Counted from the first letter of the stretch, positions 1 to 32,437 are shown. The stretch is 64,000 nt of DNA from a virus (IMGVR_UViG_3300020576_006124:32001-96000); one strand, 5' to 3'. Notes: a model not told the origin generated them from the sequence alone. Translations and numbers: made by a program.

Positions 1-69
1 AGGCAATCTATCTCAACCAACTAAGATAGATTTATATTCAAAACATCTTTTAGATTTAATAGAAGTCCT

Positions 70-801
70 ATGATGCAGATTGAAGCAAAACACCTTTTTC
101 CGGAGAGAGCCAAGCATCTTATTACTAAATTAAATCTAAACAAAGAGGGAGTAATCAATAAAGAAGGTTTTAATAAAGCTAAGAGCATTCTAGAAACCAC
201 AACATTCTGGCATAATGATCAGAAAGGTGGTATAGAATCTTTCTTACCAATCATTACTCCTAAATTTCCAGAATATAAATCCACCCAATTAGATTTTATC
301 CTTAGTTCTATCTCAGGTATTGTATTAAAAGGAGAATATGCTTACTATGGGAAAAGGTTCGATACCCCTTCTATTATCTTAAATCATTCCCCAGTTCTAG
401 TACTCCCTACTTTCGTTTTGATTCCTGGTCGCCAAGAGGATTACTACCCTTTTACCTTAACTTTAACTACTAAAGAATTAATAAGAGAGTCCGTACTGAT
501 TTCCCTTAATAACGACGGGGATCTTAAAAGTACTTCAATAACAGATGATTACCTGGAAAAGTTAGGACAATTAGATGAAAGAGAGGCTATCTTAGTTAAA
601 GGCCCTACTTGTGAATGGATTAAAGGTCTAAGGGAGATTAGCCAAAGCCATAATACAAATCAGGTAGATTTATTTGAACCCTGTGTAAGAACTTTAGAAA
701 TGTTCTGCATTCAAAACAATTTTACTTGTAAAGGACAGCAATTAAATGAACGCATACAGCTTCCCTATAACATTCTCGAAAGTCTCTTTGAGTTTCTATG
801 A
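70..801 (+). CDS. Hypothetical protein, member 1 of a 3-paralog family with a conserved Cys-Glu (AILVKGPTCE)
   Basis: 243-aa ORF; C-terminal third resembles 798..1421 and 1991..2716. Confidence 0.6.
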   Translation: MMQIEAKHLFPERAKHLITKLNLNKEGVINKEGFNKAKSILETTTFWHNDQKGGIESFLPIITPKFPEYKSTQLDFILSSISGIVLKGEYAYYGKRFDTPSIILNHSPVLVLPTFVLIPGRQEDYYPFTLTLTTKELIRESVLISLNNDGDLKSTSITDDYLEKLGQLDEREAILVKGPTCEWIKGLREISQSHNTNQVDLFEPCVRTLEMFCIQNNFTCKGQQLNERIQLPYNILESLFEFL

Positions 802-1421
802 GTACGGATTTTAATTCTCTTTCTGGGATTGATATAAGCTTAGTAGGGGATAGAATTGAGATTAGAAGCAGATTTTATCCACTTTCTCCTGTCATCCATG
901 CTAGATTTATTTGCGCGGGATTAATAAGTACTTCTACCCCTATACCTGGAGTAGAACTAAATATTAACGACGTTTCTTGTACTATTTCAGAGTGTGTCTT
1001 CTTCATTCCTTTTGCTGATAGTAAAGAAACATTTATGGAAGAAGATTTACATATAGTTCCTGGATTTTTAGCTAAAAATCCAAATAATGGAAATCATATT
1101 TTAGGTTTTTCGACAAAAAAATTGATACTTAATAATTCTATACATCGTTCTGAGAACATACCTAGGGAAAAGATTAGTCCTTATCTTTCTAGATTCTCAG
1201 ATTCAGATCTTATTTTTATAAAAAGCAAAGAATGTGAATATGACTCAGGTTACTTTGATTCAAGCTGTCACTATATCGCACAGAAGACTTACTTAGAACC
1301 ATTCCCTAGAACGGTAGAAGAATTTGTCCTAGGTTACTTAGAAAGACCTTTTGAGGGGAAGAAACCTTCCCCAAAATTAAAGGTAGCAAAAGAACTAGGT
1401 GAATTAATAGAGATCCTTTAG
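798..1421 (+). CDS. Hypothetical protein, paralog family member 2 (LIFIKSKECE)
   Basis: 207-aa ORF with ATGA overlap to the upstream gene; shared CE motif and C-terminal helix. Confidence 0.6.
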   Translation: MSTDFNSLSGIDISLVGDRIEIRSRFYPLSPVIHARFICAGLISTSTPIPGVELNINDVSCTISECVFFIPFADSKETFMEEDLHIVPGFLAKNPNNGNHILGFSTKKLILNNSIHRSENIPREKISPYLSRFSDSDLIFIKSKECEYDSGYFDSSCHYIAQKTYLEPFPRTVEEFVLGYLERPFEGKKPSPKLKVAKELGELIEIL

Positions 1422-1460
1422 TACAATTTTTCTTGGACAGTCGAAAGACTGGTCTTCGGA
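1422..1460 (+). promoter_or_regulatory. Putative -10 box (TACAAT) followed by a 5' leader hairpin with GAAA tetraloop
   Basis: TACAAT 1422-1427; stem cagtc-GAAA-gactg 1438-1451, extendable to 1436-1454; overlapping tc-TTCG-ga 1453-1460. Confidence 0.45.
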
Positions 1461-1478
1461 GATAAAAAAAACGAAACT

Positions 1479-1916
1479 ATGAATAGCTACTCTAGCAATT
1501 CCCGAGTCACGATTTTTGTGACTGCGGGTAAGGGCTCTACAACGCCCGAAGTTCTTTCTCTTAGTGATCTGGGAGTTGACCCAGCTAACTACACTGCAGC
1601 GACTGCCAATCAGTCTATTCAGGAGAAGATGGTGGAACTCATCGTCGAAAATCCTAATTTGACCGCTGATGCTTTGACTAAGCTTGCCCAAGCAAGTCAG
1701 GCTCTGGATGGGGCAGACCCCTCTAAGCTTCTCCCTGCAAAGGTTGTGGATGCTGTTTACGATCGACTCACTACGCACAGCCTCTATCAAGGAGCTACAG
1801 CAGAAAAGAAGCTTCAGGTTAAGAAGGGGGATCTTCAAATCTCTCAGAACCCCCACCCAACCAATCCTGATCTGTCAACCTTTACAATTACGGTTCCCAG
1901 TACCTGGGGATTCTAA
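1479..1916 (+). CDS. Putative ubiquitin-like (beta-grasp) protein with C-terminal W-G-F
   Basis: VTIFVTAGKGSTTPEV resembles ubiquitin MQIFVKTLTGKTITLEV; STFTITVPSTWG aligns without gaps to ubiquitin STLHLVLRLRGG; E1-like gene two ORFs downstream. Confidence 0.55.
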   Translation: MNSYSSNSRVTIFVTAGKGSTTPEVLSLSDLGVDPANYTAATANQSIQEKMVELIVENPNLTADALTKLAQASQALDGADPSKLLPAKVVDAVYDRLTTHSLYQGATAEKKLQVKKGDLQISQNPHPTNPDLSTFTITVPSTWGF

Positions 1917-1932
1917 TCTAGAGGAAATGGAT

Positions 1933-1958
1933 TTGGGGGGAGGTAATACTCCCCCCAA
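1933..1958 (+). terminator. Perfect 10-bp hairpin after the Ubl-like gene (terminator or 3' stabiliser)
   Basis: ttggggggag-gtaata-ctccccccaa; no immediate U-tract. Confidence 0.55.
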
Positions 1959-1990
1959 CCAGAGCTTTAAAGCAGGAGTGGTATAACCAA

Positions 1991-2716
1991 ATGAATCTAG
2001 ATCTAGTCTTCAAGACTTACCAAAAAAATCCAAACGCCATTTCAGGGAATTTTATCCACGGTAGCTTCTCTAGTACTGCTCTTCATCCTTTTTTTAATAG
2101 CGGACTAGATGAGGTTATTGAATCTATTAATCAAACTTTCAGGGGAGAGTTTAAGTCTGATGTGGTTCCCTGCTTTGGGTTCTATTTCAACGACGGGACA
2201 TCTTCACTGCATGCAGCTGCGAAACTAAATAAGTGTACCGTTATAGATTTTAGTTTAGTGGAGAAGGAGAACCTTTGTCCCTTTGCCGTTAGTAAAGGCT
2301 CTTCCCTTCCCAAAAACTATAAGATTACCTGCAACGAGAAAAGTTGTTTATTTGCGGGGAGGGCTTACATTATTAACCCTATCCATCTAGAGAGTAATAC
2401 TAGATTGGGATTCTATATGATCGCTCATATAGATGAAGTATCAAAATTCTATAACGATTTTGTCTCTGAGGAGTATTCAAATAGGGTGATAGAGACGTTT
2501 AAGGGCGAAGAATGGGTATATATCAGCTCTACCAACTGTGAGAGAGTTACTCCTAGTAGTAAACAAGAATCTATTCATTTACTTAATCCTATAGACTACC
2601 CATTTACTCCTTACAATTACTTAATATCGAGAGCTCTACTACAAGCTGAAGTAATAAAACCTATATCTTTTAAAGACTTGGGGTTACTAGCTGAATTGGC
2701 TAGTGTATTGGGTTAG
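1991..2716 (+). CDS. Hypothetical protein, paralog family member 3 (WVYISSTNCE)
   Basis: 241-aa ORF between the Ubl-like and E1-like genes. Confidence 0.6.
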   Translation: MNLDLVFKTYQKNPNAISGNFIHGSFSSTALHPFFNSGLDEVIESINQTFRGEFKSDVVPCFGFYFNDGTSSLHAAAKLNKCTVIDFSLVEKENLCPFAVSKGSSLPKNYKITCNEKSCLFAGRAYIINPIHLESNTRLGFYMIAHIDEVSKFYNDFVSEEYSNRVIETFKGEEWVYISSTNCERVTPSSKQESIHLLNPIDYPFTPYNYLISRALLQAEVIKPISFKDLGLLAELASVLG

Positions 2717-2724
2717 TCAAAGAA

Positions 2725-3495
2725 ATGAATGTACTTGTCATTGGAAGTGGTGCCGTTGGAAGTTTTGCAGTTAATTATATTGCAAGACTTTCTAGGACTC
2801 AGAATTTACCATTAGCTCTCGTTTTAGCAGACTTTGATACTGTCGAAGAGAGAAATGTTTATAGTCAGGACTTTACCTTTGAGGATATAGGAAAGAATAA
2901 GGCAGAAGTTACTGCTAAGAAAGCCTCAGAGTACATTAACAGCATAACTGCCTTTCCTGAGAAGGTAACCCCTGAAAACTTAAAGTCTTTACATGAAGAG
3001 TATAACTTCGATTGTATAGTTATCACGGTAGATAACCAATTTTCCCGAGTAGTTCTTAACACAGCTGGAACCATGGGTCTAAAAATTCCAGTACTACATT
3101 CTTCCATAAACTTAAATGGTACTGGTCAAGTATCTTGGTCCTACTTTAGCTCAGCTAAAAACTGTTATAGGTCTTCTTGGCCGGAAGACCCGGATAAACT
3201 TACTGCGGAGCAGCTTACTTCTCTTATGAGCCCAGAGAAAACCTCATCTCCTCCCCCTTGTGAGTTATTCCCTTTTGTACCTCTGATTCAAACTGCCGCT
3301 ATGGAGACAGCTTTGTCCTTGAGCACCTTTATAGGAAATGACCTTCATAAGGAAGTACTAAAGGTTCTTCGGGATAAAGGTACTCCCGAAGAAACTCTCC
3401 AAAATCTACCTACTAGTACCAAAGGATTTATGCTATCGAGAATTATCTCATTTAACACTAGTACCCTAACAGATCTTTTTCACCAAGATGCCTAA
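2725..3495 (+). CDS. ThiF/MoeB/E1-family adenylyltransferase
   Basis: GSGAVGS nucleotide-binding loop, ADFDTVEERNVYSQ, DIGKNKAEV, TVDN..SR, crossover-loop PPPCE (Cys179). Confidence 0.92.
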   Translation: MNVLVIGSGAVGSFAVNYIARLSRTQNLPLALVLADFDTVEERNVYSQDFTFEDIGKNKAEVTAKKASEYINSITAFPEKVTPENLKSLHEEYNFDCIVITVDNQFSRVVLNTAGTMGLKIPVLHSSINLNGTGQVSWSYFSSAKNCYRSSWPEDPDKLTAEQLTSLMSPEKTSSPPPCELFPFVPLIQTAAMETALSLSTFIGNDLHKEVLKVLRDKGTPEETLQNLPTSTKGFMLSRIISFNTSTLTDLFHQDA

Positions 3496-5818
3496 AAAAA
3501 AGAGTAAATTCGGCAATAAGTCTAAAATTCATTCTACAGAAAGTAAAAATAATATACCACAAAAAAAAAGAAAAAACAGAAGGTACGAAGATTTGAGCTA
3601 CATCGAAGAATTTTACGGTCAAGGGAATCACGGGATGCATACAACTACTCACTACTACTCATCTAAGAAATGTAGAGTATTTGGAGTATGTGCAGAGGAG
3701 ACCCCTGATCAGATTATTTTCTGTGATGGATACTCCAACTATAAAGAGGAGGAGTTACGAAAACAACTAGCCATTCATTTCAAGTTTAAAAACTACGCTT
3801 GGCCCGATGGTACAAATTTTCAGGTTTTCATCGTACCTAAAAAGAATCTTCCTTATATTAAAAAAATCTCTTCAAATAAAAGTGTCCTTTGCTGTGCCCA
3901 TGACGGTACTAAGGCTTATTTAAAGGCACATCTCGGAATTGAATTACAGTCCTCTGATAGGGATTGGTACTGTAATCACCCACAGACAGAAAGTAGTGGT
4001 CTTCCAGCACATTTTACCTTCCCTGTAATTCAATCTCTGATTAAGCCTTACAATATAGGTTTCTCAGAAATAATGGTAAAGATTCCTATGAATCTTGCCT
4101 TCCCTGAAGGATTTACTTTCCAGGATTTATACGGAAGTTATATGGAAGCCCTTGGTTGGCATCCTCTTTCTATTGCTTTATGTAATACAATTTCTGAGCC
4201 TACTCACGAAAATATTATAAACCTTCTAGAGCAAACCTTAAAAGAGATTCAATCTAATGAGTCCTATAGTGATCTTATTAAAGATAAACTAAGTGAACCG
4301 TATAGAAACGCTATAAAAGCTCAAAAAACAGCTCGGTTCACTTTCTTTAAAGAGGATCAAGAAGTCTGGGGTAAAGCATGGGTCATTACTCGGGAAGGGG
4401 TAGCTAATGGAAGAGGGGGTGTTGGACACGCTGAGTATATGGCTGTTAGAGAAAGAAAATCTAATATCTATCAGGCATTTAGATTTGATCACCTAAGTAA
4501 CTGCAATTACTCTTCAGAGCCTTTCCTTTTAGATTATGATCTGGAACAAAACTATACCTATCAAATAGATCCAGACCTTATCATGATTGAACAGGTCAAC
4601 AGCAAGGGAGAATTAGAGTTAAAGAAACTACAGTTCATGATTAACTCTTCCTACTCTCCAAATAATAGCAGTAATGTTATCTACGGAAGGGGGAACAGTG
4701 GTTCAACCGGGGCAGCTTATCATCCCTCTGTAACCGCAAACCCCTTAGAAGGAAGTCTAGACGCTTACGAACTTGCTAAAACACTATTAGCAGAAAATGA
4801 GAATAGTAAAATTACTAGGTCTCTTTCTTCTAATAGCCCTTTGACTGTAACCCACTTCAACGTTGAAGATACTGCAGTAGAAGCTCAGTCGGGAATGTTC
4901 GATTTCGTTAACTCTACTGGGTACAATCTATTTGAAAATATGATGGAAGATTATCTTGATCCTAAAGACCTTCCGAATTTACTCCCACTATATTATATAG
5001 ATGTAGACACTCAGATTTCCGATTTGAGTACCCTTGATAAAATCTACCAATCCTTTGCTTTGGGTTCAGTGAACGAAAGTGGTCTAAGGTCTGTATTTAA
5101 GTCTATAAAGGATAGTGTTTTCTATGAAACATGCTCTCCTGCTTCTTTTTTATGGGTAATGGATGAGAATCTCCCTAGAGAGATTAACTCTGAGTTTTTG
5201 AGAGTTCTTACTAAAGAGTGGGAAGAAGTTGCCTTTCCTTATATCTTAAAAGAATCTTTTGGGCCAAGTAATTCCTCAGAATTCTTTAACCTAAAGAAAT
5301 CTATTACCTCTATTCCTAATATTAAGTCAATCAAGGCTTCTACGGAGATCTTAGAGTCTAAGCTGGGAACTAACTTTATTGCATTTTTGCATACAAAAAA
5401 TCATAGACCTGACTTACTCTCATGTTGGAGTTCTCCAATGAGTCCTAAGTCTCAATTTGAGTATTTTAAATTATCTGTAGTTAATGGCTTCTTGAAACTT
5501 TTAGACACCTTTAGTGAATCATTAATTAGTGACTGTGAAGACCTATCCTGTACTACAGAAGATATAATAAATTCTTATTATGATAATTTTAGAGCAATAC
5601 TTGCTAATATGCCTGGTAAATACCGGATAGAAGATAGTGAAGAGTTTGTATCCAATCTTGGTAACGCTGCTAGGTATTATGATGTATATTATTTTGCTGT
5701 AGCTGTTTTAGCCCTGTCTGATAATCCAGATATATGTTCCCTAAGACATAAACTAGCAAGCATTCTTCATATCTTAATTTTTAATGTAACTGATTTTTCC
5801 ACTACAGGAGTTTGTTAA
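3488..5818 (+). CDS. Large hypothetical protein, basic N-terminus, overlapping the E1 stop codon
   Basis: 776-aa ORF; no family recognised. Confidence 0.7.
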   Translation: MPKKKSKFGNKSKIHSTESKNNIPQKKRKNRRYEDLSYIEEFYGQGNHGMHTTTHYYSSKKCRVFGVCAEETPDQIIFCDGYSNYKEEELRKQLAIHFKFKNYAWPDGTNFQVFIVPKKNLPYIKKISSNKSVLCCAHDGTKAYLKAHLGIELQSSDRDWYCNHPQTESSGLPAHFTFPVIQSLIKPYNIGFSEIMVKIPMNLAFPEGFTFQDLYGSYMEALGWHPLSIALCNTISEPTHENIINLLEQTLKEIQSNESYSDLIKDKLSEPYRNAIKAQKTARFTFFKEDQEVWGKAWVITREGVANGRGGVGHAEYMAVRERKSNIYQAFRFDHLSNCNYSSEPFLLDYDLEQNYTYQIDPDLIMIEQVNSKGELELKKLQFMINSSYSPNNSSNVIYGRGNSGSTGAAYHPSVTANPLEGSLDAYELAKTLLAENENSKITRSLSSNSPLTVTHFNVEDTAVEAQSGMFDFVNSTGYNLFENMMEDYLDPKDLPNLLPLYYIDVDTQISDLSTLDKIYQSFALGSVNESGLRSVFKSIKDSVFYETCSPASFLWVMDENLPREINSEFLRVLTKEWEEVAFPYILKESFGPSNSSEFFNLKKSITSIPNIKSIKASTEILESKLGTNFIAFLHTKNHRPDLLSCWSSPMSPKSQFEYFKLSVVNGFLKLLDTFSESLISDCEDLSCTTEDIINSYYDNFRAILANMPGKYRIEDSEEFVSNLGNAARYYDVYYFAVAVLALSDNPDICSLRHKLASILHILIFNVTDFSTTGVC

Positions 5819-5824
5819 AACGAA

Positions 5825-6970
5825 TTGAACCTACATAAACTTGATATAATTTACGACAAAGGTAAGGTCTCATCCTTTGGGTTCAGGGACCTTACCTTCC
5901 TTGGTAACTACTCCATTTTAGGGAGTAGGATGTACTCTCAACCTAAGGCTAGAGTCCTGGACTATGGTCATGCTCTCCCCATAATCAATGCCAATATGTC
6001 TAATATAGCTGGTATTGATATGATTAAGGCTCTACTTATCAACGAGTGTTTTGCCAGCACATCGAGATTTCACTGGAAAAACGAAGACTACAAGTCTAAA
6101 CTACAAAGCTTGATAGAAAGTAACCCTGAGTATCTTTCTAATCTATTCTTTAGTATTGGTGCTTCTTCAGAAGACCTAAGAATCCTAAAAGAGTTTTGTC
6201 ATAAGATCTACCTAACTGTATTAAATAAACTACCACATACAAACTATAAATTTAACCTTCTTATTGATGTTGCTCATGCTAACAGCATTGCCGTAAGCAA
6301 CTTTATGAAGAATAATACCTTTGACGAGTTTAATATTTTCATAGGCAATTACTTTGGCCATGAATATAAAGAATTCGACAGATTATACTCTTTAGGCATA
6401 AAAGGTATTAGAGTAGGGATAGGCCAAGGAGGAAGTTGTCTTACAACTAATGGAACAACATTCGGACTTCCTACCCTAACTTCTGTATACCTTGCTGACC
6501 GATGGAGAAGAGAAAAGGGAATAAATCCCTCAGACTTCATTATTATTGCTGATGGTGGTATTACTGGCCCTGGAGACATTATTAAGTGTTTACATTTTGG
6601 GGCTAATATAGTCTGTCTTGGATCGTATCTTTCAGATTGTAAAGAAAGACCCGGAAGATTAAAAAGAGACTGGCTTAAATTTGGAAAACCTTACAAGGAA
6701 TTTTATGGAATGTCTTCTCACAAATCCATTAAGGAAAGAGTTGGGCTAGTAAGAGAAGGAATCTCCTCAGAGGGATTAGTTAAGAAGGTTTATATAAAGA
6801 CCGAGGTGGCTCATAAGGTATCTGATTTCGCTTCCTTTTTAAGATCTGCTATATCTTATGCTGGAGTTGAAACAGTAGATCATCTGCATCATAAGTGTGA
6901 CTTTGAGTTTATTAGCCCTAGTGTAGCAGCTTATAACGCGAGTAAAGATGAATTCCTTAGAAAGTACTAA
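5825..6970 (+). CDS. guaC: GMP reductase-like protein (IMPDH/GMPR family, no CBS domains)
   Basis: IDVAHAN, RVGIGQGGSCLT (catalytic Cys), IIADGGI, GDIIK, FYGMSS...SEG; the flap region resembles GMPR more than IMPDH. Confidence 0.8.
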   Translation: MNLHKLDIIYDKGKVSSFGFRDLTFLGNYSILGSRMYSQPKARVLDYGHALPIINANMSNIAGIDMIKALLINECFASTSRFHWKNEDYKSKLQSLIESNPEYLSNLFFSIGASSEDLRILKEFCHKIYLTVLNKLPHTNYKFNLLIDVAHANSIAVSNFMKNNTFDEFNIFIGNYFGHEYKEFDRLYSLGIKGIRVGIGQGGSCLTTNGTTFGLPTLTSVYLADRWRREKGINPSDFIIIADGGITGPGDIIKCLHFGANIVCLGSYLSDCKERPGRLKRDWLKFGKPYKEFYGMSSHKSIKERVGLVREGISSEGLVKKVYIKTEVAHKVSDFASFLRSAISYAGVETVDHLHHKCDFEFISPSVAAYNASKDEFLRKY

Positions 6971-7232
6971 CTTGGAAAATAACTATTACTCCGTTATTAT
7001 TCCAGGTAAGGTTTCATGGTACAACACTTCTGAGAAAAATTTAACCACTTATTACATTTTCTTTGATAAAGAATTCGCTTTCAATTATGCTTCTGCTAAT
7101 ATAGGTGAATCCTTTATAGTTAAACAAATAGATTTAGAACATTTTAAGGAGAATTTACCTACATCTCTCTTTGGTAAAGTAATTATAAAATATTTAGAAA
7201 AAGACTTACCTAGTTACCAGGAGGAATTATGA
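6948..7232 (+). CDS. Hypothetical protein
   Basis: 94-aa ORF in a tightly packed run. Confidence 0.55.
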   Translation: MNSLESTNLENNYYSVIIPGKVSWYNTSEKNLTTYYIFFDKEFAFNYASANIGESFIVKQIDLEHFKENLPTSLFGKVIIKYLEKDLPSYQEEL

Positions 7233-30219: not shown

Positions 30220-30906
30220 TTGAAAGGAAAAGTAAAACGTATAATGCCAGAGATAGAAGTTTGTGTAGTATCAGACATTCATGGGTATATCCCCTCAAAT
30301 GTTCCTGATTGTGATTTATTTATAGTTGCAGGGGACTTAACACATGAAGGAAGAAACGGAGTTAAAGGGGCCTCTTGGATTAATAAAAAGTTTGTACCTT
30401 TCGCTGAAGATCTTAAACGGAGAGGAATACAAGTTTTAGTTATTGCAGGAAACCACGACTATTGTTTCCAAACCCATTGGCACCTATTACAACCTAATGT
30501 CCCCTGGAAATATCTAGAAAATACTGCTTTCCATTTTAAAGGGCTGAAGATTTGGGGAAGTCCTTGGACCCCTTTCTTTTTTAACTGGGCTTTCAATACT
30601 ACTGAATCTGATCTTAAAAGAATGTACTCTGCTATTCCTAAAGATACAGATATATTAATAACACACGGCCCCCCAAAAGGAATTTTAGATCTTTCCCCTT
30701 ATGGAATGGTAAATGCTGGATCTACGTCTTTAAAAGATATTATTCCAACCTTAACGAATCTTAAGTTACATATTTTTGGTCATATTCACCATTCGAGAGG
30801 GGAACTAAGAACAGATTCTGGTCTGATTCATGTTAATGCATCATATGTAAAAGAGGATTATAAGCCTCATGGTTCTCCTTTACAAATCTTCAAATTAAGT
30901 GTTTAA
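30220..30906 (+). CDS. Metallophosphoesterase
   Basis: SDIHG, AGDLT, AGNHD, ITHGPP, FGHIH. Confidence 0.9.
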   Translation: MKGKVKRIMPEIEVCVVSDIHGYIPSNVPDCDLFIVAGDLTHEGRNGVKGASWINKKFVPFAEDLKRRGIQVLVIAGNHDYCFQTHWHLLQPNVPWKYLENTAFHFKGLKIWGSPWTPFFFNWAFNTTESDLKRMYSAIPKDTDILITHGPPKGILDLSPYGMVNAGSTSLKDIIPTLTNLKLHIFGHIHHSRGELRTDSGLIHVNASYVKEDYKPHGSPLQIFKLSV

Positions 30907-31318
30907 AATTATGTATTCTCTCCATCCTCTAAGCTTAGTTCTTCCTTACTACCTAAGACCCTCTTATTTTAATGGGTGTCTTACTATTTTCTCTCCTGAG
31001 ACACTAAAGTACTATACTATAGATTTAAAGAAATCATTTCAACACAACTCTACTCCAATAATTTGCATATTAGAACACCTTAAGCTGGAGTTATCTTCTT
31101 ATTCTACCAAACTTTCCTCTAACAAATTATTTCACCCTTCTCATTCTTCATACTGGGAATACTGTGAATGTAGAGAAGTTATTAATAGTTTAAGTATATT
31201 AAACGCCTCACAGGAGGATATACTTTCTTCTTTTGAGGTAGCCTTTAGATTTCTAAAATTAAATAACAACCTTAAACAAGAAAAACCAAAGCCTTTATTA
31301 TTCTCAGGAAGGGATTAA
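30899..31318 (+). CDS. Hypothetical protein
   Basis: 139-aa ORF. Confidence 0.5.
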   Translation: MFKIMYSLHPLSLVLPYYLRPSYFNGCLTIFSPETLKYYTIDLKKSFQHNSTPIICILEHLKLELSSYSTKLSSNKLFHPSHSSYWEYCECREVINSLSILNASQEDILSSFEVAFRFLKLNNNLKQEKPKPLLFSGRD

Positions 31319-31324
31319 TAGAAA

Positions 31325-32437
31325 ATGGATCTAAAAAAAATTAAAGGAAAAGTCTTAGTACTCGAAAACGATGATATTTTACTGTTTGTTTCGGTTACTA
31401 AGCAGGGTATTAAAACTACCCGCACAACTTCTGAGGGAGAAGAAACCACTTTCTTCTTAGACGAGAATGGAATTCTTGAGTTTATGACTCAGGAAGAACT
31501 AGAAGATCTTTGTACTCCTAAGAAAAAAGAAAAACCTTTACCTTTTAATAATCCAATTCTTTTAAGGATTTATCCCCATCTAAAAAAAAGTGAGAATCTT
31601 CTAGAGTTATTAGGGGTAGATTCTGAGGAAGGACTACCTACAACTGAGGAAGAGTTTCTAAACTGGTATTGGCATACCAGACTATCTAATTGCAAAAGAT
31701 GTTCTCTTTGTGAGTCTAGAACTAACGTTGTAAAATATGATGGCAAAGTTTCAGCTAAGATTATGGTAGTAGCAGAGGGGCCTGGATTTCTAGAGGATCT
31801 TACAGTTCTTCCTATGGTAGGCTACAATCAACTACTGGTTAGCAGATGCAATACGTGTGAGGAAGTTAAGAGGTGTTTCTCTCATAGACTATTAAAGTCC
31901 CCCACCTCTTGGGGTGGAAGGTCTAAAATAGTAGAGTGTAAGTATAAGAAGAGTAATACCCCCTTATTACAACCTAAGAAATTCTTTATTAGATCTGCTG
32001 GTCAGGTAATAGATGGCGTACTAAACTCTATAGATCACTCCTTAAAAAGACAGTCCTATTATGACGCGCAAGGGATTTCAAAAGAAAGCCTCTTCTTTTT
32101 TACAAACGTTGCCCTATGTAGAACTAAAGATCTTTCTGGATTGAAAGACCAAACTCCAGACTCCTTAACTATCAAGCAGTGTAGAATAAATCTCCTTGTT
32201 CAATTAGCTTGTGTTCAGCCTGAGGTAGTTTTGCTGTTAGGAACTGTATCAGCAAAAGCGTTTCATATGGAGACTTCTCCGTTTAGAACTTTAGTTGATT
32301 CAAGATACGGCTGTAAAATAATAAAAGACAGACATCCCGCCTTTATTATGAGATTAGAAACACCTCAAGAAAAGGCAAGTGGCTATGCTCTGCTTAGAAA
32401 AACTTTCAAAGACGCAATAGAATATGTTGGAAACTAA
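31325..32437 (+). CDS. Family 4 uracil-DNA glycosylase with N-terminal extension and Cys-rich insertion
   Basis: CKRCSLCESRTNVV, AEGPG, RSAG, TNVALCR, LLLG, RHPA. Confidence 0.85.
   Translation: MDLKKIKGKVLVLENDDILLFVSVTKQGIKTTRTTSEGEETTFFLDENGILEFMTQEELEDLCTPKKKEKPLPFNNPILLRIYPHLKKSENLLELLGVDSEEGLPTTEEEFLNWYWHTRLSNCKRCSLCESRTNVVKYDGKVSAKIMVVAEGPGFLEDLTVLPMVGYNQLLVSRCNTCEEVKRCFSHRLLKSPTSWGGRSKIVECKYKKSNTPLLQPKKFFIRSAGQVIDGVLNSIDHSLKRQSYYDAQGISKESLFFFTNVALCRTKDLSGLKDQTPDSLTIKQCRINLLVQLACVQPEVVLLLGTVSAKAFHMETSPFRTLVDSRYGCKIIKDRHPAFIMRLETPQEKASGYALLRKTFKDAIEYVGN

Follow-up and report, generated by a model that had tools for sequence, protein, structure and literature searches.

What do the diverged, cysteine-bearing paralogs that flank a candidate ubiquitin-like modifier (Ubl) gene and an E1-type adenylating enzyme gene in a phage genome do, and could they carry the modifier on its way to a target? 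The question is raised by the first few kilobases of a 64,000-nt stretch of viral DNA, hereafter the window, which comprises bases 32001-96000 of the 197,239-base IMG/VR phage record IMGVR_UViG_3300020576_006124 (estimated to be 85% complete). A model-generated reading of this DNA, here called the original prediction, had proposed that three paralogs with a conserved Cys accept the Ubl as E2/E3-like proteins or act as specificity variants. We find five paralogs, A to E, in the gene order A-B-C-D, a 145-aa candidate Ubl, E, ThiF/E1, a 776-aa open reading frame (ORF) and an IMPDH-family gene. We tentatively read all five as sequence-orphan, phage-specific Cys carriers of the neighbouring modifier, that is, as functional E2s and possibly combined E2/E3s, an interpretation that we regard as plausible rather than probable.

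Five diverged paralogs form one family

Paralogs C (70-801, 243 aa), D (798-1421, 207 aa) and E (1991-2716, 241 aa), all on the plus strand, are those named in the original prediction. Their coordinates and the hydrophobic strands ending in Cys-Glu (AILVKGPTCE, LIFIKSKECE and WVYISSTNCE) were verified, as were the codons of Cys181 in C (610-612, within a Cys181-Glu182 pair at 610-615), Cys146 in D (1233-1235) and Cys183 in E (2537-2539). The guess that further copies might lie upstream was also right, and the count of three was too low: a family hidden Markov model (HMM) run on the six-frame translation of the contig recovered exactly five copies. Paralog A (280 aa, motif LYYLKGFRCEF) occupies genome positions 30527-31369, wholly upstream of the window, and paralog B (235 aa, motif AILVKGPKCEW) occupies genome positions 31366-32073 on the plus strand, with window positions 2-73 holding its last 23 codons and stop.

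Similarity among the copies, which had been supposed from their shared motifs, is significant but uneven. Significant BLASTP alignments were limited to the B-C pair (34% identity, E = 2e-26) and the C-D pair (E = 1e-4, across the Cys region), and C against E gave no alignment at all. Profile-profile comparison of ortholog-based sub-alignments (A pair, B/C group, D pair and E pair) connected the B/C group to the D pair (E = 5.7e-17) and to the A pair (E = 2e-6), and the E pair to the A pair (E = 4.6e-5), with the B/C group against the E pair reaching merely E = 0.15. Six-frame searches of the whole 197-kb contig gave a compatible picture, with E as the top non-self match of the A-pair HMM (E = 0.0078) and with B, C, then E and A near the top for the D-pair HMM. 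In all of these alignments the same Cys stays in register. On this basis we accept A-E as one family, in which E is the most distant member, connected through A. A maximum-likelihood tree that includes the counterparts from a second phage (marked by primes) recovered E+E' (support 100/100), A+A' (89/93) and {B, C, C'} (88/91), and left the placement of D, D' and B' unsettled; these groupings indicate that the paralogs had radiated before the two phages diverged, and that the B-D group underwent further turnover.

The A/B, B/C and C/D junctions are built from the identical hexamer CTATGA, in which the last Leu codon, the stop codon and the next ATG share a 4-nt overlap (genome 31366-31369, genome 32070-32073 or window 70-73, and window 798-801, respectively). 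These overlaps suggest translational coupling, and the conserved terminal Leu of the paralogs is tied to them.

A Cys-Glu pair is invariant in an otherwise free sequence

An alignment of 10 sequences from two phage lineages (about 25% identity overall, about 15-37% pairwise) contains, after Met1, only two invariant elements: Pro60, in the poorly aligned N-terminal part, and the Cys-Glu pair, which is preceded by a hydrophobic strand. The predicted conservation of the Cys in homologs thus extends to 10 of 10 sequences. A single invariant Cys of this kind is typical of a nucleophile, not of a disulfide or metal site. The residues that follow have the form E-W/Y/F/R-x-x-G, with no conserved Arg or Pro after the Cys.

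A second feature, missed by the original prediction, is a downstream His: 8 of the 10 family members have one 12-15 residues past the Cys. The spacing is exactly +13 in C, B, E, P0006 and P0008, whereas D, P0007 and P0009 have +12, +14 and +15; the window copies have it as His194 in C (649-651), His158 in D (1269-1271) and His196 in E (2576-2578), and the residues after it are usually N-Q-V. Beyond this region the B/C/D group has a P..RT.E.F motif. The Pro-containing motif that had been ascribed to all three named copies holds, as EP..RT, for B, C, D and their counterparts, and is not found in A or E. The terminal amphipathic helix fared better, with all 10 members having an L..L.(E/D).L helix at the C-terminus or at most 3 residues from it.

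The family is found only beside the E1 and the candidate modifier

A search of 1.84 billion cluster representatives with the five-copy profile, with no length filter, returned the five proteins themselves and only four others, all four encoded by a single metagenome contig of 13.2 kb (L003), whose proteins are also found on two short Logan contigs. On L003, which is syntenic with the source genome, a double-psi beta-barrel (DPBB) protein is followed by five paralogs, the fourth and fifth of which flank a small ORF, and then by ThiF, a 732-aa ORF, IMPDH and four small ORFs. The candidate Ubl was confined to the same two lineages, both in Ubl-profile searches and in a word-based homolog search that gave just two orthologs; the word-based search with paralog C found only itself, and neither paralog C nor the Ubl profile had a relative among the viral contigs scanned. 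Neither the paralog family nor the Ubl was present at any of 80 metagenome loci with more distant ThiF genes. The co-occurrence with the E1 and Ubl that had been expected was therefore observed, in that every match lies in the source genome or on one syntenic contig: the paralog family is seen only together with the E1 and the 145-aa protein, in two related, collinear phages that make for weak co-occurrence statistics.

Rates of change separate E from the other copies. In a syntenic block of 19 genes, A-D are the fastest evolving, with 22-30% identity between orthologs and global alignment scores of 0.14-0.43 per residue, compared with 1.0-3.6 for the remaining 15 genes. Paralog E, the best-conserved copy, has 45-46% ortholog identity, the E1 51% and the Ubl candidate about 51-52%, so that E evolves about as fast as its two neighbours. 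It also lies between them, ending 8 nt 5' of the E1 start. Fast change in A-D and change at the pace of E1 and Ubl in E fit a set of variable specificity modules plus a core enzyme.

The partner genes encode a Gly-Phe-ending protein and a compact E1-type enzyme

The candidate modifier is a 145-aa protein encoded at 1479-1916 on the plus strand. Its C-terminal octapeptide, TVPSTWGF, is identical in both phages and ends Trp-Gly-Phe, with Gly144 followed by Phe145. Directly 3' of its stop codon is a G+C-rich stem-loop (1935-1956, plus strand) with a 10-bp G/C stem, in a genome of 35% G+C; the 80-nt spacer that holds it folds at -29.6 kcal/mol (z = -3.65). An equivalent stem occupies this place in the second phage (about 6717-6740 on L003), with a different sequence and the same design of a G-run and a C-run, in a spacer that folds at -20.5 kcal/mol (z = -2.07); a weaker hairpin also lies 5' of the 145-aa gene in both phages. 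The stem-loop may act in RNA stability or attenuation and so give the 145-aa protein a level different from that of the flanking genes.

The gene at 2725-3495 (plus strand) encodes a compact, single-domain ThiF/MoeB/E1-type adenylating enzyme of 256 aa (PF00899, E = 3.6e-22), with ThiF, MoeB, MoeZ and UbaA as its best family matches. Against solved structures, E. coli ThiF and the Uba1 adenylation domain score equally, at about 31 bits. The enzyme retains the glycine-rich loop and the DN...R motif, and Cys179 (3259-3261), within the sequence SPPPCEL, is conserved, with about 14 extra residues just ahead of it. It begins at the Rossmann strand, without the N-terminal segment of about 35 residues found in two aligned MoeB/MoeZ sequences, and lacks both CxxC zinc pairs of those sequences (CYRS here, QYRT in the second phage).

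A possible route from E1 to target

If the paralogs are carriers, the 145-aa protein would be trimmed after Gly144, and the E1 would adenylate the exposed C-terminus and load the modifier onto Cys179. The acyl group would then move to the invariant Cys of a paralog, 2-3 residues past the hydrophobic beta-strand, possibly aided by the His about 13 residues downstream, as proposed for BilB His151, and the paralog would transfer the modifier to the target. Paralog E, which evolves at the pace of the E1 and Ubl, would be their core partner, and A-D would be specificity variants that pick different targets without an E3 through their divergent N-terminal parts and inserts.

Parts of this route have precedent. 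E2-like proteins of bacterial operon class 6d have no classical upstream His and instead an absolutely conserved His downstream of the Cys (Iyer et al. 2006, PMC1779556). In the structure of BilB, Cys138 is at the E2 catalytic position with His151 (+13) adjacent, a divergent disordered loop has been proposed to select targets without an E3, and the Ubl BilA ends Gly97-Ala98 and requires trimming (Chambers et al., PMC10557695). The phage module resembles BilABCD (types I and II; classes 6d/6C) in its small modifier ending Gly-X; its paralogs resemble BilB ('CEHH') in having a Cys with a +13 His and no HPN motif and in having a divergent disordered segment; and the E1 of each has a conserved Cys, which is catalytic in Bil and predicted to be so, as Cys179, in the phage. 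The two differ in that BilB has no sequence or profile similarity to the phage family (PADLOC BilB model unmatched; hhalign E >= 0.04). Bil has one partner where the phage has five, and its operon includes a JAB deubiquitinase, of which none was found in the phage contig. The Bil E1 has two domains (inactive and active adenylation domains, with a CYS domain and a zinc site), whereas the phage E1 is a single domain of 256 aa, and Bil lies in a bacterial defence island, whereas the phage module is encoded by a virus. The likenesses are a resemblance in possible working, from which membership does not follow.

Other systems share less. Cap2 of type II cyclic-oligonucleotide-based antiphage signalling systems (CBASS), an E2-E1 fusion with a Prok-E2_B domain, also places its catalytic Cys directly after a hydrophobic strand, but has retained, about 8 residues ahead of the Cys, a His that the phage family lacks, is fused to its E1 where the phage paralogs are separate genes, and has as its substrate a cGAS-like enzyme, not a small protein. 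That the C-termini of the paralogs are themselves E1 substrates, like the tails of CD-NTases (cGAS/DncV-like nucleotidyltransferases) for Cap2, is unlikely, since those ends are predicted to be helical and hydrophobic (L..L.E.L) and do not terminate in Gly or Ala. ThiF-ThiS, MoeB-MoaD and archaeal UbaA-SAMP have, like the phage, a compact single-domain E1 with a Cys in the crossover-loop region, but their carriers end Gly-Gly and no set of Cys-bearing paralogs accompanies them. The eukaryotic arrangement of one E1 and many E2s is matched in that one activating enzyme stands beside several diverged Cys-bearing partners; eukaryotic E2s, however, are recognisable (UQ_con, HPN) and use E3s, and neither is seen in the phage module.

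Structure comparisons give an E2-like reading weak support

For profile-profile tests against prokaryotic E2s, 400 genomes of the Fluviicoccus keumensis phylum yielded five proteins matching the PADLOC BilB model and eight Cap2 E2 domains (Pfam Prok-E2_B). hhalign comparison of all subfamilies gave E >= 0.04 against BilB and E >= 0.019 against the Cap2 E2 domains, where the lowest value aligned an unrelated region. A control comparison of BilB with Cap2-E2, both structurally proven E2s, also failed (E = 0.23), so little can be concluded from the negative result. Three subfamily profiles gave best alignments to BilB that, though not significant, all cover the stretch leading to the Cys. In that of the E pair (E = 0.04, not significant) the Cys falls on the catalytic-Cys column, with ...WVYISSTNCERVT... 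of E opposite ...ALYLPCDRVS... of a BilB, whereas the matches of the whole family and of the A pair stop in the preceding strand.

Only one of the five BilB-model proteins used in these comparisons keeps the Cys. The other four (L104-L107, E 1e-35 to 1e-41 against the model) have Trp in place of the catalytic Cys (YRPWDR or YRGWQR against YLPCDR), and L104 has no cysteines at all; judged from their sequences, the Trp-bearing proteins may be inactive E2-like proteins or use another nucleophile.

AlphaFold2 models of paralogs C and E, built with the 10-sequence alignment, have the same order of elements, namely N-terminal helices, a beta-sheet broken up by a disordered insert and by a helix, then the final strand, the Cys loop and two helices, and core segments reach a predicted local distance difference test (pLDDT) score of 70-83 (71-83 in E). 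The Cys lies 3-4 residues past the last predicted strand in both (3 in E), an equivalence to the E2 position that rests on low-confidence models. In an exhaustive VIA-align comparison with 48,161 chains, 13 of the 50 best matches of the E model belonged to the superfamily of ubiquitin-conjugating (UBC), UEV and RWD domains, as assigned from entry titles and aligned ranges, all at Z <= 3.6. The best-scoring E2-type match was the Cap2 E2 domain (7to3_A residues 7-157; Z 3.4, root-mean-square deviation 4.6 A, 105 aligned residues), and a Plasmodium E2 (2h2y) reached Z 3.2 over 98 aligned residues. Further UBC-type matches were three FANCL DRWD chains, the Tsg101 UEV, a VPS37A UEV-like domain, and Spc24/25 and other kinetochore RWD domains; the 13 also include 8hsb_B of a CdnG-E2 complex and 8tyz_C of a bacterial E1-E2-Ubl complex, the latter assumed, from its length and the range aligned, to be the E2. 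These matches hint at a helix-plus-meander-plus-helices architecture that would be compatible with the E2 superfamily; we make no fold assignment from them. Poor ESM Atlas models (predicted template modelling score (pTM) 0.18 for C and 0.43 for the Ubl) had unrelated neighbours, and a predicted complex of E1, Ubl and paralog E (interface score ipSAE 0.00-0.01), in which the partner's own fold is uncertain, was uninformative either way.

Several results weigh against the paralogs being E2-like carriers. At the level of sequence, the HPN motif is absent, as the original prediction had noted of the canonical HPN..C signature, and neither a His nor an Asn is conserved upstream of the Cys in the 10-sequence alignment; the A pair, moreover, has no His downstream of the Cys. 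The paralogs had no match in Pfam, NCBIfam, PADLOC or PHROGs, even at E <= 10 (E <= 1 in some scans), and UQ_con and Prok-E2_B had none anywhere in the 197-kb contig. Profile searches of the PDB with the family and subfamily profiles gave nothing relevant; the only hit below E = 0.01, the upper collar (portal) protein of phi29 (1fou_A; E = 0.0087, per-domain E = 1), aligned at '...FLKS..CE...' and was judged to be a chance match of a short motif.

The models are also of low confidence (pLDDT 54 and pTM 0.57 for C, pLDDT 56 and pTM 0.56 for E), with the Cys loop below pLDDT 50 in both, and they place a helix between strands, which is unlike the canonical UBC fold. Scores of Z <= 3.6 are below the noise level of the tool for best hits (Z 7-8), and the enrichment of UBC chains may merely reflect a common helix-plus-meander arrangement. 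The 50 best matches of the C model included no UBC-like chain, only beta-meanders such as PH domains and WD40 blades, and Foldseek searches of the PDB and BFVD with both models found nothing below E = 0.09, to which a re-examination of the PDB hits added nothing.

The partners raise doubts of their own. No comparison confirmed a beta-grasp fold for the 145-aa protein. The missing N-terminal segment and zinc cysteines leave the mechanism of the E1 itself uncertain. A Prok-JAB search of the contig (about 85% complete) at E <= 1 found nothing, nor was any other trimming peptidase recognisable in it. The synteny of two related, collinear phages alone does not prove functional linkage. The original prediction withstands the conditions that it set for its own refutation, in that the paralogs are significantly related, the Cys is conserved in homologs and the family occurs only with the E1 and the Ubl candidate. 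The further step to an E2/E3-like acceptor stays a proposal; the UBC signal is weak and comes from the E model only, with no profile link to E2s. Taken together, the evidence weakly supports an E2-like reading.

Alternative roles for the paralogs

The main rival interpretation, which we regard as somewhat unlikely, is that the paralogs are fast-evolving phage proteins without any enzymatic link to the E1, such as host-interaction or anti-defence binders or assembly factors, and that the Cys serves redox sensing, an intermolecular disulfide or a ligand. The collinearity of the two phages extends over 19 genes or more, which means that their shared order was inherited and not independently selected; A-D outpace every neighbour, as is often true of host-interaction gene arrays in large phages, another tandem array of paralogs lies about 5 kb upstream, and no method links the family to any enzyme class. 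However, a Cys-Glu pair that stays invariant amid near-total change argues for chemistry over mere binding, the His at +13 parallels BilB, and the position of E between the Ubl candidate and the E1, together with its matching rate, also counts against this reading.

We consider it unlikely that the paralogs are instead Cys-His hydrolases that trim Phe145, remove the modifier from targets or do both, in place of the missing JAB. An invariant Cys with a nearby conserved His, followed in most members by Asn or Gln (H..NQ), would suit such a role, as would the failure to detect a JAB in the contig for a modifier whose Gly-Phe end would need trimming. Yet the Cys comes after a beta-strand and not at the head of a helix, its place in papain-like and NlpC folds, and a Cys-His spacing of about 13 residues is unlike that of known Cys peptidase clans. 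No peptidase family was matched, no peptidase fold appeared among the structural matches of the C or E models, the A pair lacks the His, and five paralogous deconjugases for a single modifier would be odd.

Rather unlikely, too, is a variant in which the paralogs are carriers or ligases as proposed but are built on a non-UBC scaffold, for example a zinc-less JAB/MPN-like fold. The succession of a helix, a hydrophobic strand and an active-site residue also describes the JAB HxH strand, as BilC sequences show. Nevertheless, hhalign comparison of all subfamilies with five BilC JAB domains, taken from the same loci as the BilB-model proteins, gave E >= 0.12 and left the Cys strand unaligned, a test of low power at such divergence; the 50 best structural matches of the C and E models held no MPN chain, and there was no Pfam JAB signal.

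A sulfur-transfer module, in which the ThiF/MoeB-like enzyme adenylates a sulfur carrier and the paralog Cys relays a persulfide, perhaps for nucleotide modification with the IMPDH/GMP-reductase-like gene two genes downstream, would fit the family matches of the E1 and the ordinary MoeB/MoeZ genes at the two neighbourhoods read (L006 and L021) among 97 distant ThiF loci from metagenomes and genomes, but is improbable because known sulfur carriers end Gly-Gly where the 145-aa protein ends Trp-Gly-Phe, because the paralogs have no rhodanese CX5R, CPxP or DsrE-type loop, no conserved Arg after the Cys and no match to the rhodanese, TusA or DsrE families in library scans, and because five rapidly diverging relay proteins would be unprecedented where metabolic relay proteins are normally conserved.

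Neighbouring genes and source of the DNA

Two genes past the E1, the IMPDH/GMP-reductase-family gene (window 5825-6970; PF00478, E = 5.5e-35) encodes an active-site loop with a Cys, GGSCLTT, and shares 59% identity with its counterpart in the second phage. Directly 5' of paralog A in the window phage, and of the array in both phages, is an RlpA-like DPBB protein (DPBB_1; genome 29991-30527, L003 3011-3376) with 71% identity between the two; its ATG-started frame in the window phage has about 57 more N-terminal residues than that of L003. A scan for promoters and terminators gave counts not above shuffled expectation.

Contigs from public runs of two studies, one of them a riverine metagenome, hold the DNA of window positions 1-7000 with no differences in the parts covered, and a single contig spans the full 7 kb of the paralog/E1 stretch. 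This identity among independent assemblies shows that the stretch is not an assembly artefact. The independent contigs that cover it contain no variants, and no RNA run was among the runs listed as containing it. The source is probably a freshwater phage.

Implications for phage biology

The prokaryotic Ubl conjugation characterised to date is a bacterial weapon against phages (Bil, CBASS Cap2 and Bub). If the carrier reading of A-E is correct, a phage would own tagging machinery of its own, and would obtain specificity by multiplying and diversifying the carrier and not through E3 ligases. A more speculative extension, which we put forward as a possibility only, is a virus-owned system of Ubl tagging without a recognisable JAB or E3, in which one minimal E1 serves five diversifying orphan Cys carriers, each acting as E2/E3 for a different host or competitor protein, as a phage counterpart of, and possibly a counter-weapon to, Bil and CBASS. 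Should the carrier reading be wrong, the family would still be a compact case of a strict Cys-Glu site held in an otherwise free-running sequence. Should it be right, a family unmatched in every profile library tried would show how far the sequence behind E2-type chemistry can drift.

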